IMG/VR virus record: IMGVR_UViG_3300027763_000026
DNA from: a virus
Direction: 5' to 3' (one strand)
DNA: 64,000 bases
Below are positions 39,446-52,713 of the stretch, piece by piece (position 1 is the first letter of the stretch; each line of letters starts with the position of its first letter). A model generated the notes under the pieces. The model was not told the origin of the DNA and did no database searches. It saw nothing but the letters and a program-made list of their open reading frames with translations. The position numbers and the translations under genes were made by a program.

Positions 39446-39832
39446 GGGCCCGTACTGGTTTCGATTTTAAAGAAATAAATTGAAATGCAAGTGGAGGTTG
39501 AATCGAGGACTCCTTAAAAAGTTTCAATTTATATTAACTGCCAAAACAGCAAAATATAAAGGTCATATTTCAGCAAGAGTTTCTCTTGTTGAGATGACCG
39601 CTTCTGTAGCTTAAGTTACAGCGTGATACCCTTGACACATCTATTGGGATATTGCGTAATTAGATGTCTTATTATTAGTAGTTTTTTTATTCTATTAATA
39701 TTAAGTATCAAAAATAAAATCGCTGAGTATGTTTGCTCTTTATCTATACAAAGCTAAAAACAAAAAGAACTAAACTTGTAGTATTTTAATTTAGATTTTT
39801 AAAAGACAGAGGTTCAATTCCTCTCGGGTCCA
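39446..39832 (+). ncRNA. ssrA: tmRNA
   Basis: 5' GGGCCCGUACUGGUUUCGA; 3' T-arm AGAGG-UUCAAUU-CCUCU then CGGGUCC-A; acceptor stem with G3.U70; tag frame 39540-39614 (AKTAKYKGHISARVSLVEMTASVA*); CCA not encoded. Confidence 0.92.
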
Positions 39833-39899
39833 AGTAAACGAATCCCTCTGTCTGCATTTTTATTAGAAAAAACGTATCGTAACTATATATAATCCTTAT

Positions 39900-46079: not shown

Positions 46080-46406
46080 ATGGAAAACAATAAACAACAA
46101 AATGATTGGCAAAAAAGAGACATCGGTGCATTGTGGAAAAGAGAAGGGAAAACTCAGAAATATCTTTCTGGTTATTTTAAAGATGAACTTGGGGAACAAG
46201 TAGAGATCGTTATTTTTGCTAATAAATTTAAAAAAGAGAATCCTAAAGCTCCAGATTACAGAGTATATCTCTCGTCAAAAATTGATGGATCTAAAAAAAC
46301 ACAAGTTGAAGCGCCTACCGCTTCTGAAGTCCCTGTCAAGGCCCAAAAGAAAGTTGTCGAAAAGGTTGTAGAGAAAGTAATTGAAGAGGAAGAAGATCTG
46401 CTGTGA
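46080..46406 (+). CDS. DUF736-like protein
   Basis: IGALWKREG...YLSG...NPKAPDYRVY; GGAG Shine-Dalgarno. Confidence 0.55.
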   Translation: MENNKQQNDWQKRDIGALWKREGKTQKYLSGYFKDELGEQVEIVIFANKFKKENPKAPDYRVYLSSKIDGSKKTQVEAPTASEVPVKAQKKVVEKVVEKVIEEEEDLL

Positions 46407-47485
46407 GTTTATGCTTGAATTTGCCAATTAACTCCGTATCTTTTGGGCAAACTTCTGCGTTAATTTTAAAAGAACTCTTCAAAAGGGAAACAGATGTAAT
46501 TCTATTTCCAATTGGAAGTCAGATAGATTTTTCTACTCAAAATGTCGAAAAGAAATTTCTTGATTGGGTTAATATATCATTAAAAGATAATGACTCCAGA
46601 TATTCTAGGAATGATAGGATTTTTAAATTATGGCATATCAACGGCTCCCTAGAGTCTTTCGCTAAAGAGCAATTATTATTTTCTTTTTATGAACTTGATC
46701 AACCTACGCAAGCCGAAATAAATATTGTAAAAAATAACCACAAAGTCTTGTTCTCTTCTGAGTACACTTGTGAAGTTTTTAAAAATGCTGGTTGCAACAA
46801 TATAGAATATGTACCATTAGCTTTTGATAAATATAACTTTTTTAATACTAATAAAACATATATGGAGGATCGTATAACTTTTAATTTAGCAGGTAAATTA
46901 GAAAAAAGAAAAAATCATAAAAAGGTTATACAGAGTTGGCTTAAGAAATACGGTAATAATAGAGACTATTTTCTACAATGTGCAATCTATAATCCATTCT
47001 TAAAACCTCAAGATCAACAACAATTATTAAATTCTATTTTAGAAGGTAAAGAGTACTTTAATATATCATTTTTAAATTTTATGGAAAATAATGCTTTATA
47101 TAATGACTATTTAAATAGTGCAGATGTAATAATTGGCATGAGCGGTGGAGAGGGCTGGGGATTACCAGAATTTCATTCTGTAGCTCTAGGAAAACAGGCT
47201 GTAATCTTAAATGCTCATTCTTATAAATCTTGGGCTAATAAAGATAACTCTGTGTTAGTAGAACCATCTGGTAAAATTGAAGCATATGACAACATGTTTT
47301 TTCACAAAGGGCAAAGGTTTAATCAAGGTAATATTTATACATTCAATGATGATGATTTTATAGATGGATGCGAAAAAGCTATTAAAAAAATAAAATCAAA
47401 TAAAATAAATAAAAATGGTTTAAAATTGCAAGAAGAGTTTTCTGCTACAAGACTAGTTGATAATATATTAAAACATTATGCCTGA
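46403..47485 (+). CDS. GT-B glycosyltransferase
   Basis: AGKLEKRKN...SGGEGWGLPEFHSVALGK. Confidence 0.8.
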   Translation: MSLCLNLPINSVSFGQTSALILKELFKRETDVILFPIGSQIDFSTQNVEKKFLDWVNISLKDNDSRYSRNDRIFKLWHINGSLESFAKEQLLFSFYELDQPTQAEINIVKNNHKVLFSSEYTCEVFKNAGCNNIEYVPLAFDKYNFFNTNKTYMEDRITFNLAGKLEKRKNHKKVIQSWLKKYGNNRDYFLQCAIYNPFLKPQDQQQLLNSILEGKEYFNISFLNFMENNALYNDYLNSADVIIGMSGGEGWGLPEFHSVALGKQAVILNAHSYKSWANKDNSVLVEPSGKIEAYDNMFFHKGQRFNQGNIYTFNDDDFIDGCEKAIKKIKSNKINKNGLKLQEEFSATRLVDNILKHYA

Positions 47486-48186: not shown

Positions 48187-49251
48187 TTAGAGTTTTAAAT
48201 CACCAAAATCTTCGTCTTCTATGTCCGTCTTCCTTGCGCCCACTTTATAGCTTGATATCTCAGTTTCTTGTGGCGCAACTTGCACTTTGCTACTGTCCAA
48301 ATAGCTGTCATGCCATCCAGCTATAGGATTATCTTTTTGATTAAATATCTTCTTATAGCCTAAGCTTCTTAATCGGCTATCACAAAGCCACTTAGAGTAG
48401 CCATCTAGAACGTCAGCATTTAATCCAAGTAAACTGCCTTTACTAAAGAGATACTGAGACCATTCACTTTCGTTCTTCGCGGCCTGTTCATAGAAAGCGT
48501 ATATCTTATCTTCATTTTTCTTTACAATAGATGTAAAGCCTTCTTTATCTTCGTCACGAAGTATCTTCAATAGATTTTGAGAGGTAGCAAAATGCAAAGC
48601 TTCATCTCTTTGAATGAATTTTATAATTTTAGAATTACCTTCCATCTTTCCCCGATATCCAAAATAAAAAGAACAAGCAAAAGAAACATAAAACACGAGT
48701 CCTTCCATTACATTAATAGAAAGAATAGCATCAAAAATCTTTTGTTTAGGGTCTTTCTTTTCGTCGCTACCAAGAATTTTATCAAAATTATCTCTAATTA
48801 ATTGAGCGCGACCTGTTATTTCTTTATCCTCCATGATACTATCAAAAAATTTAGTAGGATCTGGATGAACATTATTTAAAAGATAAGAATAAGAATAACT
48901 ATGAATGCCTTCAAATTGAGCCCAAGTATTCATGCATATTTCTAGCTCTGGATTACTAACGTAATCTTTTAATGAGTGTATGCTTCTAGATAACATACTA
49001 TCTCCAAGAGTTTGGAATCTTAAATTACTATCAAATACAAATCTTTCGGTGTCAGTCAAATTTTTATAATCGCTTCTATCTTTTCCTAAAGCTATTTCAT
49101 GTGGCCACCAGAAGTTTTCATTTTGTTTTTTGAATAGCTCAAAAAATATTGGATATTTAAACCTATCATATCTTTGCAAATTTAAATCCTCGCCAAGAAA
49201 CAATGGTTGTTTAGTAAAGTCTACGTTTTTAAAATTTAATACTGTTTTCAT
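48187..49251 (-). CDS. nrdB: Ribonucleotide reductase class Ia beta subunit
   Basis: FWWPHEI, QTLGDS, EGIHSYSY, EGLVFY, IQRDEALH. Confidence 0.95.
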   Translation of the reverse strand: MKTVLNFKNVDFTKQPLFLGEDLNLQRYDRFKYPIFFELFKKQNENFWWPHEIALGKDRSDYKNLTDTERFVFDSNLRFQTLGDSMLSRSIHSLKDYVSNPELEICMNTWAQFEGIHSYSYSYLLNNVHPDPTKFFDSIMEDKEITGRAQLIRDNFDKILGSDEKKDPKQKIFDAILSINVMEGLVFYVSFACSFYFGYRGKMEGNSKIIKFIQRDEALHFATSQNLLKILRDEDKEGFTSIVKKNEDKIYAFYEQAAKNESEWSQYLFSKGSLLGLNADVLDGYSKWLCDSRLRSLGYKKIFNQKDNPIAGWHDSYLDSSKVQVAPQETEISSYKVGARKTDIEDEDFGDLKL

Positions 49252-51494
49252 AATTTACAAGCTCCACTAGCACAGTCATCTTCTTTTTGTGTCATAGACT
49301 GCTCTTTATCTCCATCGTCTGTATTATTATAATACAAACTAATTAGTCCAAGGCTATAAGCATACATTATTTCTTTCATAACTTTGCTGTCTGGTAATAT
49401 ATGATTTTCATAGTGACTGTAATTATAATACACATTAGTAGAAATAGCCATATCAATATATTTTTGAATTACTGCGTTTATTTTTAATAAACCTAAATTA
49501 TCTTTAAAATCAAAAGCTAATTCATAATTATGATCATATTTTCCAATTCCTGGAACCATAACTGGAAGTTTACCCATTTTGCTTGTTTTATAAGTAATAA
49601 GACTACGAATAGGCTCGACACCGTTTGTAGAAGATTGAATTACAGAGCTACTCTCACAAGGCATACAGGAGGATAATGTCGAATGTCTTAATCCAAATTC
49701 TTTGATATCTTTTCTTAGTTTCTCCCAATCAAGTGATAGTTTTCTTTTTACTAATTCGTCTACTTTATCTTTGTATGTATCTATTGGCAAGATACCTTTA
49801 GAGTATTTTGTATTTTCAAATTTTTCGCATCTGCCTTTTTCTTTAGACAATTGGCAACTACTCTTTAAAAGATAGTATTGAAAATGCTCCATCCACTCAT
49901 CTATTACCGAAAGAGACTTATCTGAATTATATTTTAATTCATTTTTAGCAAGAAAAGCTGCAAGATTGGTGATTCCAACTCCAAGGCTTCTACGCTTTTT
50001 AGCAAAATTTTCTGCTGCGAAATTGAAGTAGTCTTGAATGTCTATAATTTCTTCAAGGAATCTTACAATTAAATCACAAACTTTTTCTAAATCTTGCCAG
50101 TTTTTTACTTCTAACATATTAACTGCCGAAAGAATACACATACCAATTTCTGCATCTTTATCATGGTAGTCATTAAGTGGAATTGTGGGGTGAATAACTT
50201 CTGTGCAAAGATTGCTCATGGTTACTTTATCAGACCAAGCTCCATGATTGTTAGCATGATCTACATTTAGAATATAAATTCTTCCAGTTTCAACTCTTTC
50301 TTTTATTATAAGAGAGAATAATTTACGAGCAGAAATTTTCTTTTTAATTTTTAGTTTCTTAGACTCGCATTCTTTATAAATCTTATCAAAGTCTTTTGTC
50401 CCCCAAGCTTCATAAAGCTCTGGCACTTCGGCAGTATTAAATAGCATGATATCTTCATCTTTTAAAACCCTATCATAAAATAATTTGCTCATACCAACCG
50501 TATAATCAAGTTTACGAACTCGATTGTCGTCTGTTCCAGCATTATTTTTCAATACTACAACATCTTCAATTTCGTAATGCCACCATTGTATATTGCAGGT
50601 TGCACTTCCTCCTCTTAAACCATTTTGTTGCCAAGCTTTCACGCTACTCTCATAAATTTTTAAGAATGGAATTAACCCCGTATGGACGACTTCCCCATTT
50701 TTAATTGGGGCGCCAATTGCTCTAATCCTGCTAACATCAATTCCAATTCCACATCTATTTGCCGTAGCCATACTAACTGCCGTAGCACTAGCAGTAATGC
50801 TTTCTTTCGTATCGTCTACCCCAATCAAGCAACAACTCGCGTAATTTTTACTAGAAGTTCTTACTCCTGCCATAATTGGAGTTGGCAAATTTATTTTATG
50901 CTTACTAATAGCATCGTAAAATTTCCTTACATAAGTCAATCTAGTTTCGCTTGGATAATTTATAAATGCATAAGCAGAGATTAATATATAAGCAAACTGT
51001 GGTGTTTCGTAAATTTGTTGGGTAGTTCTATTTTTTATTAAATATTTATCACATAATTGTTTTATACCAGCATAGGTAAAGATAAAGTCTCTTTCGTGAT
51101 CTATAATTTCGCCCAGTTTATTTATTTCATCTTCTGTGTATTTTTCTAGGATAGCAGGGTCATATATCTTATTTTTTAAACCATTATTTATAAATTCAGA
51201 AAGTCTTGGCGCATGTTTGCCCTTCCAAACGTCTTTTCTTAATTGATAATTAAGAAGCCTAGCTGCAACATATTGATAGTTTGGTTTTTCTATAGAAATT
51301 AAATTTGCCGCACTTTCAATCAATAAGCTATGAATTTCTTTTGTATGAACTCCATCGGTTATATTAATTTTAGCATTTATCTCTATGTCTGTTAAACTAA
51401 CTCCAGAATATCCATCTATAGCCCAATTAATAACTTTGTTAATTTTTTCTATATCAAATTTTTCAGTAGTATTATTTCTTTTCTTAACATTCAT
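49248..51494 (-). CDS. nrdA: Ribonucleotide reductase class Ia alpha subunit with ATP cone
   Basis: VKKRN ATP cone, ASCC, SNLCTE, MPCESSS, C-terminal CASGACKL. Confidence 0.96.
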   Translation of the reverse strand: MNVKKRNNTTEKFDIEKINKVINWAIDGYSGVSLTDIEINAKINITDGVHTKEIHSLLIESAANLISIEKPNYQYVAARLLNYQLRKDVWKGKHAPRLSEFINNGLKNKIYDPAILEKYTEDEINKLGEIIDHERDFIFTYAGIKQLCDKYLIKNRTTQQIYETPQFAYILISAYAFINYPSETRLTYVRKFYDAISKHKINLPTPIMAGVRTSSKNYASCCLIGVDDTKESITASATAVSMATANRCGIGIDVSRIRAIGAPIKNGEVVHTGLIPFLKIYESSVKAWQQNGLRGGSATCNIQWWHYEIEDVVVLKNNAGTDDNRVRKLDYTVGMSKLFYDRVLKDEDIMLFNTAEVPELYEAWGTKDFDKIYKECESKKLKIKKKISARKLFSLIIKERVETGRIYILNVDHANNHGAWSDKVTMSNLCTEVIHPTIPLNDYHDKDAEIGMCILSAVNMLEVKNWQDLEKVCDLIVRFLEEIIDIQDYFNFAAENFAKKRRSLGVGITNLAAFLAKNELKYNSDKSLSVIDEWMEHFQYYLLKSSCQLSKEKGRCEKFENTKYSKGILPIDTYKDKVDELVKRKLSLDWEKLRKDIKEFGLRHSTLSSCMPCESSSVIQSSTNGVEPIRSLITYKTSKMGKLPVMVPGIGKYDHNYELAFDFKDNLGLLKINAVIQKYIDMAISTNVYYNYSHYENHILPDSKVMKEIMYAYSLGLISLYYNNTDDGDKEQSMTQKEDDCASGACKL

Positions 51495-51620
51495 TTTATA
51501 TAAAATAGGGGGAACTCTATATTACAGTGTTTTTTAAAATTTAAAAAGAAAAAAATTTAGTTTTATTAACATTTATTATTTAACTCAATAAAGAGTGTAC
51601 TAATCTGTATTTTTATAACA

Positions 51621-51905
51621 ACTTCCCAATGAGCTCTTCAAAGCGGAGCTTTCCCTGTGCTTTGCGCAGGGTTGGTGAAAGCCTATTAGTTCTACTTCCC
51701 AATTGAGTCTGTAAACCTTTCGGTCCCTAACACTTATCGGATGTCGGTAGGATCATCCATCGCGTGTTAGCCCTTACACCTACACTCCCACTATTGCTAG
51801 TGGTTTCTGGGTCGCAAGCTCCTAAGCGTTGCCCACGTTTCGAACTAATGAGACTTATCGTTTAACGGAGTACGACAAACCTTATCCGCTAATTGGGCGG
51901 TATGT
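51621..51905 (-). ncRNA. Large structured RNA of about 285 nt, family unknown
   Basis: GC-rich island between AT-rich flanks; TTGACA(51940-35)-N17-TACTAT(51917-12); GNRA-capped hairpins and long-range 5-8 bp complementarities. Confidence 0.75.
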
Positions 51906-51969
51906 ATTTATATAGTATTATACATATTTACATTTGTCAAATAAATTTAATTTAATTATAATGTAAATA

Positions 51970-52713
51970 ATGAAAAAAGTTTCCTATTGTACAGTATGCT
52001 ATGGTAGATTATGGCAATTAGCGTTTACATTAAAATCTAATTTAGATAACCTTAAAGAAGACGAAGAGCTTGTTCTGGTAGACTATAATAGTCCAGATGA
52101 TACTATGATTTTTGTTTTAGGCACAAAAACTTTTAAAAAATATATAGAGGAAGAAAAATTAAAATTTATAAAAGTCTTAGATGTAAAAGAGTATAATTGT
52201 CCAAAATCTAAAAATATAGCTCATAGGTTAGGCTCTGGAGAAATTTTAGTAAATTTAGATGTGGATAATTTTTTATTAGGAATGCGGGAAGAAATCGATA
52301 AAGCTTTTAATAAAAATAAAAATAGTTTACTTCATATGTATTTTGAACCACAAGGAGGGTCTTTTGGCAGGATAGCTTTGACAAAAAGTAATTTTTATAA
52401 ATTGGGCGGTTACGATGAAGATCTATTGGAACATTCACATCAGGATACAGACTTAATCAATAGAGCAAAGGCATTGGGCATGACCTATGGCCTTCGTCCT
52501 TTAGAATCTGAAGTTATAGCTAATAACCTTTATGCGAAAAATAGATACTTAAGAGAGGACTGGTTTAGCATGCAACAAAAAAATAGAAAAATTAGTCAAG
52601 AAAATATTATGAATGGAAAATTTGTAGCTAATAAGAGTAAAGGTTGGGGAGAGTGTAAAATCATAGAGAACTACGATAAGGATATTATAAATTTAAAAGC
52701 TATACGCCCATAA
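51970..52713 (+). CDS. GT-A glycosyltransferase (GT2/GT7-like)
   Basis: LVLVDYNS, VNLDVD, FYKLGGYDE...QDTDL. Confidence 0.75.
   Translation: MKKVSYCTVCYGRLWQLAFTLKSNLDNLKEDEELVLVDYNSPDDTMIFVLGTKTFKKYIEEEKLKFIKVLDVKEYNCPKSKNIAHRLGSGEILVNLDVDNFLLGMREEIDKAFNKNKNSLLHMYFEPQGGSFGRIALTKSNFYKLGGYDEDLLEHSHQDTDLINRAKALGMTYGLRPLESEVIANNLYAKNRYLREDWFSMQQKNRKISQENIMNGKFVANKSKGWGECKIIENYDKDIINLKAIRP

Follow-up and report, generated by a model that had tools for sequence, protein, structure and literature searches.

We identified an RNA gene of ~287 nucleotides (nt) on the minus strand of a 64,000-nt stretch of viral DNA (IMG/VR record IMGVR_UViG_3300027763_000026; the whole stretch is hereafter called the window). 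The window comes from the genome of a T4-like phage and encodes rIIA, DNA ligase, a baseplate-wedge-like protein, phage glycosyltransferases, a one-piece transfer-messenger RNA (tmRNA) and, according to Pfam, a class Ia ribonucleotide reductase (NrdA and NrdB). The RNA gene lies just upstream of nrdA. Judged by NrdA, the nearest cultured relatives of this phage are the Pelagibacter phages Mosig and HTVC008M, which share only 52% identity with it.

The RNA gene (51619-51905) is a GC island, with 45-48% GC versus 20-30% in its flanks and ~28% in the genome, and its fold is stabler than that of shuffled sequences (z = -2.65). It contains no open reading frame (ORF) except a 33-amino-acid antisense frame. 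A predicted promoter of the sigma-70 type (early), TTGACA and TACTAT with a 17-nt spacer, sets the transcription start at ~51905, and nearly every copy of the RNA retains its own TTGACA promoter. No minus-strand terminator was found between the RNA gene and nrdA. The GC-rich stretch, the consensus promoter with its start site, the lack of an ORF and the lack of a terminator ahead of nrdA had all been read from the window by an initial annotation, and each is borne out. The element is almost certainly a real, stand-alone, uncatalogued structured RNA gene; that it stands alone follows from the variation of its position and orientation between phages and from the conservation of its own promoter.

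Relatives of the RNA gene

We collected 80 related phage loci through NrdA (78-98% identity). Immediately upstream of nrdA, 18 of them carry an RNA homologue that BLAST detects (subfamily 1), and alignment of these homologues shows conservation that begins at the promoter and ends right after the second occurrence of UUGGGAAGU. Five further loci carry a very different sequence with the same architecture in the same place (subfamily 2), and locus L067 carries a third type. A search with a subfamily 2 profile added a fourth type, which at least 24 loci carry behind nrdB in the opposite orientation. A covariance model (R1) built on subfamily 1 alone and restricted to nested helices matches all four types end to end, with scores of 258-328 bits for subfamily 1 and 39-68 bits (E-values of 4e-10 to 3e-19) for the other three. 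Pattern scans contributed further members from IMG/VR and from lake metagenomes. In total, the family numbers at least 149 phage and lake-metagenome loci, comprising 89 distinct sequences in four subfamilies that are only ~50% identical.

One RNA copy was found in the window and one in a contig estimated to be 86% complete. The family is apparently a single-copy feature of the genomes in a clade of uncultured, T4-like freshwater phages, and it represents an uncatalogued RNA present in nearly every member of an abundant lake-phage clade. The RNA locus appears to carry exchangeable alleles: helices and boxes differ between them, and the architecture is kept. This conclusion follows from a comparison of the window with locus L002 (L002:2537-2857), where RNAs at the same place are 49% identical beside NrdA proteins that are 98% identical. 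Either allele replacement by recombination or very fast divergence accounts for the difference.

Searches of RNA catalogues returned no related family. Rfam 15 (4227 models, including tmRNA, RNase P, group I and II introns, GOLLD, ROOL, raiA and cobalamin) matched only the tmRNA at 39446-39833 in the window at the gathering threshold. At E<=10, the region 51450-52050 yielded just three chance-level matches, all in the AT-rich flank, and at E<=1 the loci of the other three subfamilies yielded only tmRNA. The Polynucleobacter-1 motif (RF01718) matched neither this RNA nor, at E<=1, any of five large contigs of the clade. A blastn search of the RNA against the GenBank phage collection found no match. 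One narrow pattern scan of bacterial and archaeal genomes returned 18 stretches; all lie in GC-rich coding DNA, are rejected by the family hidden Markov models and count as chance matches. A whole-record R1 search of Pelagibacter phage HTVC008M was blank, a result that is uninformative since the same search was also blank on an RNA-bearing contig. The initial annotation could match the RNA to no known family, and the empty Rfam results at both gathering and permissive thresholds agree with it. The family is thus new to Rfam, and it may still sit among the unnamed candidates of an IMG/VR catalogue of 10,006 candidate structured RNAs (csRNAs; PMC10690425).

Covariation and the double-pseudoknot fold

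Compensatory changes show that the RNA folds into a compact core of ten nested helices and two pseudoknots (Table 1). From 5' to 3', its elements are the hairpins H1 and H2, the 5' strand of the long-range helix H3, the two-part hairpin H4 with the 5' strand of pseudoknot 1 (PK1) in its loop, H5, the 5' strand of pseudoknot 2 (PK2), helix H6 enclosing H7, with the 3' strand of PK2 in the H7 loop, H8, a single-stranded box A, the 3' strand of H3, H9, the 3' strand of PK1, a linker and a box B. In the subfamily 1 alignment, 96.8% of cells are paired in the curated structure versus 32-47% when partners are slid, and 25 of 67 pairs have changed on both sides, a count reached by none of 500 shuffles. 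We also tested the structure on 34 representatives drawn from all subfamilies and aligned with MAFFT without regard to structure. Here 86.1% of cells are paired (33-45% when slid), and both sides have changed in 54 of 67 pairs, with a covariation score of 0.469 compared with at most 0.149 in controls. Compensation is visible in single helices such as H4, in which GGG/CCC is replaced by UGG/CCA or UAG/CUA and CGC/GCG by UGUC/GACA.

Both pseudoknots are supported by covariation. Although PK1 lies outside the covariance model, it occurs in 15 distinct and fully complementary variants. Its own strands form a Watson-Crick run of at least 6 pairs (median 7) in all 88 scored members, whereas strands exchanged between members average 3.9. 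PK2 occurs as GUAGG/CCUAC, GUAGCU/AGCUAC, GUGGCU/AGCCAC and GUGGAU/AUCCAC. The 3' strand of PK1 ends only 11 nt ahead of box B, so the core would close just before box B is made. To our knowledge, RNAs this large with two covariation-backed pseudoknots are almost always ribozymes, riboswitches or ribonucleoprotein cores.

The initial annotation had described a large pseudoknotted non-coding RNA with competing helices, and part of this description stands. The hairpins CCACUA/UAGUGG, GACC-GAAA-GGUU, CUAACAC/GUGUUAG and CCCUG/CAGGG all exist and covary. The long-range pairing AUUAGUUC/GAACUAAU, which is part of H3, and the pairing GGAGCUU/AAGCUCC, which is PK1, are likewise real, covarying and mutually crossing; they do not compete, and jointly form a pseudoknot. 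The impression of mutually exclusive helices arose mostly from three others that lack covariation support. In the proposed closing helix CCCAAU/AUUGGG, the 5' half is the H1 loop and changes without compensation. A second closing helix, AGCGGA/UCCGCU, is present only in some subfamily 1 members and overlaps H1 and PK1. As for AGUCU/AGACU, AGUCU is part of H3 and varies while GACUC is invariant. PK2 and the 5' hairpins H1 and H2 are additions to the earlier list. With strong covariation and no Rfam match, the initial annotation's view of a large pseudoknotted non-coding RNA outside any known family is upheld; the accompanying suggestion of a switch for ribonucleotide reductase is not supported.

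Several other pairings were tried and rejected. Pairing of GACUC with GAGU or GAGCUC, of the H1 loop with the boxes, of J1/2 UUUG with CAAA of box A, and of the 5' ACAU with GUGU is in each case broken in some lineages without compensation. An alternative 3' hairpin that uses the 3' strand of PK1 (AGCUCC/GGAGCU) could form, but covariation is lacking at its variable positions and present at those of PK1. On the plus strand, the antisense of H1 together with a T-rich tail (51886-51900) scores as terminator-like, exactly at the 5' end of the RNA.

Table 1. Features of the RNA gene and its surroundings in the window. RNA features are given 5' to 3'.
Feature	Position	Strand	Basis or remarks
-35 hexamer TTGACA	51935-51940	-	Conserved in nearly all homologues, in all subfamilies
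-10 hexamer TACTAT, 17-nt spacer	51912-51917	-	Homologues have a TAnnAT box at the same place
RNA gene, ~287 nt	51619-51905	-	R1 match at 51618-51906, 316.5 bits; many G-U pairs fix the strand
RNA 5' end (conserved ACAUA)	~51905	-	Placed from the promoter
H1 hairpin CCGC/GCGG, loop CCAAUUA	51886-51900	-	Stem differs between subfamilies and still pairs; region poorly aligned by MAFFT
H2 hairpin GUCGU/ACGAU	51857-51876	-	Subfamily 1: 100% paired, 3 of 5 pairs changed on both sides; all subfamilies: 97% paired
H3 5' strand AAGUCUCAUUAGUUC, long-range helix closing the core	51842-51856	-	13 pairs, 99% paired, 7 changed on both sides
H4 two-part hairpin GGG-CAA-CGC ... GCG-A-CCC, loop with PK1 5' strand	51809-51834	-	97-98% paired across subfamilies
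PK1 5' strand GGAGCUU, in H4 loop	51816-51822	-	Covariation
H5 hairpin CCACUA-GCAA-UAGUGG	51788-51803	-	Subfamily 1: 3 of 6 pairs changed on both sides; longer in subfamilies 2 and 3
PK2 5' strand GUAGG	51779-51783	-	Covaries with H7 loop; 94.7% paired in the all-subfamily alignment
H6 CUAACAC/GUGUUAG, enclosing H7 with a 5x5 internal loop	51727-51770	-	All subfamilies: 6 of 7 pairs changed on both sides
H7 GGAUG/CAUCC	51739-51758	-	All subfamilies: 4 of 5 pairs changed on both sides
PK2 3' strand CCUAC, H7 loop	51747-51751	-	Covaries with GUAGG
H8 hairpin GACC-GAAA-GGUU	51714-51725	-	GNRA loop in subfamily 1; longer hairpin in the others
Box A CUCAAUUGGGAAGU, single-stranded, junction before H3 3' strand	51694-51707	-	10-13-nt core identical to that of box B in every scored member
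H3 3' strand GAACUAAUAGGCUU	51679-51692	-	Covariation in subfamily 1 and all-subfamily alignments
H9 hairpin CCCUG/CAGGG, variable loop	51653-51671	-	All subfamilies: 93.8% paired, 4 of 5 pairs changed on both sides
PK1 3' strand AAGCUCC, 3' of H9, crossing H3	51645-51651	-	Covariation
Box B CUCAUUGGGAAGU, 3' end of conserved region, no hairpin after it	51621-51633	-	Core identical to that of box A
RNA 3' end	~51619	-	Placed where conservation stops, just past box B
Spacer motif GTACAC	51595-51600	-	Conserved wherever nrdA follows the RNA
Spacer motif TGTTAATAA, like an extended -10	51563-51571	-	Conserved wherever nrdA follows the RNA
Spacer T-run	~51543-51555	-	Conserved wherever nrdA follows the RNA
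Spacer motif ACTGTAATAT (ACTGTAAYAT)	51519-51528	-	Conserved wherever nrdA follows the RNA
nrdA, class Ia large subunit with ATP-cone	49248-51494	-	Pfam; neighbour, outside the element

Twin boxes and possible mechanisms

The initial annotation had also seen that UUGGGAAGU occurs twice, as the alignment confirms (51694-51707 and 51621-51633). In each of the 88 distinct members that allowed scoring, these two tracts, boxes A and B, have an identical core of 10 nt or more. Eight versions of the core occur (AUUGGGAAGU, ..AAAU, ..AAGA, ..AAUU, AUUGGAAAGU, ACUGGGAAGU, AAAGAAAAGU and AGGGAAAAAGU), and RNAs with different box versions never have more than 9 nt in common in their longest shared stretch. 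All cores are purine-rich, with 7-10 purines per 10-11 nt, and similarity between the two copies reaches upstream of the core (GA.CUCA in one and GGA..UCA in the other). The boxes thus change in lockstep, down to single bases, which argues for base pairing and not protein recognition. Such tracts are a rare and sharply testable clue that points to a candidate mechanism.

No complement that covaries with the boxes is present inside the RNA or in 200 nt of flank. No exact complement of at least 10 nt was found elsewhere in the 64-kb window, and three relatives estimated to be ~50% complete hold no consistent one. Given the lockstep change and the lack of anything complementary in the RNA, box A must, by this reasoning, pair with the complement of box B. 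Such an arrangement requires two coordinated changes per box variant versus three with an outside partner, and is preferred for this reason. Template DNA would be the partner of box A, because it is the only box B complement that is always present. A reading in which the boxes recognise a tRNA anticodon loop fits subfamily 1 only (UUCCCAA) and was dropped. As a separate observation, a single 11-nt site, TTCCCAATGAG, at G009:C1:772 (the phage of locus L374) is complementary to that phage's box B and lies ~24 kb from its RNA gene; no counterpart was seen in other contigs.

We tentatively favour a mechanism in which the RNA uses its template DNA as an anchor and forms a persistent R-loop, by analogy with ColE1 RNA II, though we regard it as less than an even prospect. 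The fold would hold the single-stranded, purine-rich box A in the core, and PK1 would draw the 3' tail with box B back to it. As RNA polymerase passes box B, box A would pair with the template DNA strand underneath, which would tether the transcript to the DNA in a lasting R-loop. From this R-loop, RNase H and a DNA polymerase could go on to produce a replication primer. Several features fit this proposal. The untranslated transcript is predicted to start from its own promoter and has no terminator. Box B ends the conserved region with no protecting 3' hairpin, both boxes are purine-rich, and the DNA directly 3' of box B is AT-rich. An upstream tract that can pair with the template of a downstream tract is available in 88 of 88 members, by virtue of the box identity over at least 10 nt. 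The single copy per contig and the closure of the core just ahead of box B fit as well. The evidence from GC skew, which is confounded with gene orientation, is equivocal: in the window, the RNA gene lies at a strand switch and at the cumulative GC-skew minimum.

In ColE1 RNA II, an rG/dC contact gives a persistent hybrid, and T4 oriF and oriG are origins that consist of a promoter plus an R-loop (PMC4412123, PMC5043065). Initiation of replication at R-loops is known from T4-type phages. The lake-phage RNA resembles these systems in that it is predicted to be a promoter-driven, untranslated, structured transcript without a terminator. It further resembles RNA II in having upstream and downstream tracts of the same sense, so that pairing to the template is possible as in the rG/dC contact. 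The two RNAs share no sequence or structural homology, however; the lake-phage RNA is half the size and has a double-pseudoknot core in place of stem-loops, and no antisense RNA I is visible. If the R-loop proposal is true, the aquatic T4-like phages that are relatives of pelagiphages and cyanophages would have their first defined replication origin at this RNA gene, and a folded RNA would programme its own persistence on DNA.

Several observations weigh against a self-anchoring R-loop. Contig G005 has its skew minimum and strand switch at a distance of 8.5 kb from the RNA gene, with the same confounding of skew and gene orientation. The subfamily 3 RNA is oriented head-on towards nrdB and nrdA. 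In all subfamilies, the UCA ahead of the core is followed in box A by an additional A relative to box B, for which the R-loop model offers no explanation. Nothing resembling the antisense regulator RNA I was seen, and no plus-strand promoter was found inside the RNA gene, which leaves no evidence for an antisense RNA there. T4 origins require no elaborate RNA. Finally, two pseudoknots and many invariant junction bases suggest that the RNA does more than anchor a hybrid.

More generally, the double-pseudoknot scaffold might represent a new mechanistic class that joins two identical tracts so that one pairs with the complement of the other, a possibility that we hold with no more confidence than the R-loop itself. 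The complement could be the RNA's own template DNA or a freshly copied strand, or the tracts could pair in parallel, like with like. We know of no catalogued bacterial or phage RNA family that uses recognition by identity instead of complementarity.

Nearly as likely, and ranked just below the R-loop, is an outside partner gripped twice. Here the knotted core of a trans-acting scaffold would present two identical single-stranded tracts, each pairing with the same outside sequence. The RNA might sequester, bridge or guide its target, either a repeated site or a host or phage RNA or DNA present in two copies. The lockstep change of the boxes argues for a nucleic-acid partner here as well, and an elaborate conserved fold behind an early promoter is like that of trans-acting structured RNAs. 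The divergence of the RNA beside nearly identical NrdA (49% versus 98%) looks like changing specificity in the fashion of an arms race. Against such a partner, the searches described above found no complementary site in the window and no consistent one in relatives, each box variant would require coordinated change in box A, box B and the partner, and box B sits at an unprotected 3' end without a terminator hairpin. If an outside partner exists, the RNA would be a new two-handed guide or decoy that acts early in infection. Under either reading, the family merits a covariance model and experiment.

It is rather unlikely that the RNA is a protein-binding scaffold or ribozyme in which the boxes serve as twin sites for a dimeric protein or as duplicated structural modules. 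The invariant junction nucleotides and double-pseudoknot core are typical of ribozymes and ribonucleoprotein scaffolds, and the extension of box similarity upstream of the core would suit duplicated modules or twin sites. However, close relatives show simultaneous single-base changes in both boxes (AAGU, AAAU, AAGA, AAUU, GGAAAG and ACUGGG), for which protein recognition would hardly account, and no conserved protein gene accompanies the RNA. Its neighbours are NrdA, glycosyltransferases and small ORFs without a family. No nuclease domain was found in the ORFs adjoining the RNA, which argues against an omega RNA of the TnpB/IscB kind.

It is improbable that the RNA is a template which a polymerase copies repeatedly or in a rolling manner, starting at box B, reaching box A and having the end of the new strand re-pair at the other box. 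Telomerase RNA and the DRT2 non-coding RNA are template RNAs with repeat-guided re-pairing, and in them, as in the lake-phage RNA, short identical words bound a segment of a structured RNA. Two identical boxes that flank a ~75-nt segment would suit such a template jump. Here, however, the bounded segment is structural and not free template, as it contains the 3' strand of H3, H9 and the 3' strand of PK1. No reverse transcriptase (Pfam accession PF00078) is encoded beside the RNA or in four contigs estimated to be 77-87% complete, although control genomes were matched.

Other known families offer looser comparisons. GOLLD (RF01998) and ROOL (RF03087) are likewise intricately folded, phage-associated RNAs whose function is not known. 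They are much larger, whereas the lake-phage RNA has twin boxes, does not lie beside tRNA genes and has no Rfam match at E<=10. Polynucleobacter-1 (RF01718; Weinberg 2010, PMC2864571) is distinct in that its model matches neither the lake-phage RNA nor the five clade contigs.

Gene order around nrdA

The position of the RNA relative to nrdA varies within the family. In the window (with a 124-nt spacer) and in 23 of the 80 related loci, nrdA follows the RNA on the same strand at a distance of ~125 nt. In about half of the related phages, the RNA gene is instead found behind nrdB in the opposite orientation, and no gene comes after it. The subfamily 3 RNA converges on nrdA-nrdB and one or two additional small ORFs, ends 12-25 nt away from a stop codon and has no gene downstream on the same strand. 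Kilobases separate the RNA from nrdA in the contigs of L004 and L011 (~6 kb in that of L004), and in L059 a gene for a family-25 glycosyltransferase (L059:1778-2893) lies between the two. We found no expression platform, either a terminator/antiterminator or a helix that masks the start site, that links the RNA to nrdA, and the 3' part of the RNA together with the spacer folds no more stably than shuffles (z = +0.91).

Four spacer motifs (Table 1) are absent behind subfamily 3 copies. Because they are present only where nrdA follows, these motifs are assigned to nrdA and probably represent its own promoter or operator elements, as far as their sequence and distribution indicate. Upstream of nrdA itself, no Shine-Dalgarno-like sequence is present at 51495-51515 (minus strand), and the start codon is preceded by CCCCCUAUUUUAUAUAAA.

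Control of nrdAB in cis by a riboswitch or leader, along the lines of the switch suggested by the initial annotation, would suit the close same-strand spacing and the missing terminator but is scarcely credible, as it is contradicted by the gene order (convergent and with no following gene in at least 24 related loci, distant in two contigs and interrupted in L059), by the lack of an expression platform and by nrdA having conserved upstream motifs of its own. Known riboswitches and operators upstream of nrd genes (cobalamin, RF00174; NrdR boxes) are alike only in the position seen in the window; no riboswitch model matches here, the position is not conserved and no expression platform is present.

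The wider surroundings of the RNA gene also vary between phages. In the window, glycosyltransferase genes flank the locus (46403-47485 and 51970-52713). The main strand switch has the nrdAB block on one side in the window (~52 kb) and on the other in G005 (88 kb; the record of L066), which implies that this block has been rearranged within the clade. The one-piece tmRNA (39446-39833, plus strand) has an unusually long predicted tag of 24 residues, and tmRNA genes are also present in relatives (L044:7799-8188 and L009:7850-8238). In subfamily 3 phages, the RNA and tmRNA genes are divergent neighbours 300-800 nt apart, versus 12 kb apart in the window.
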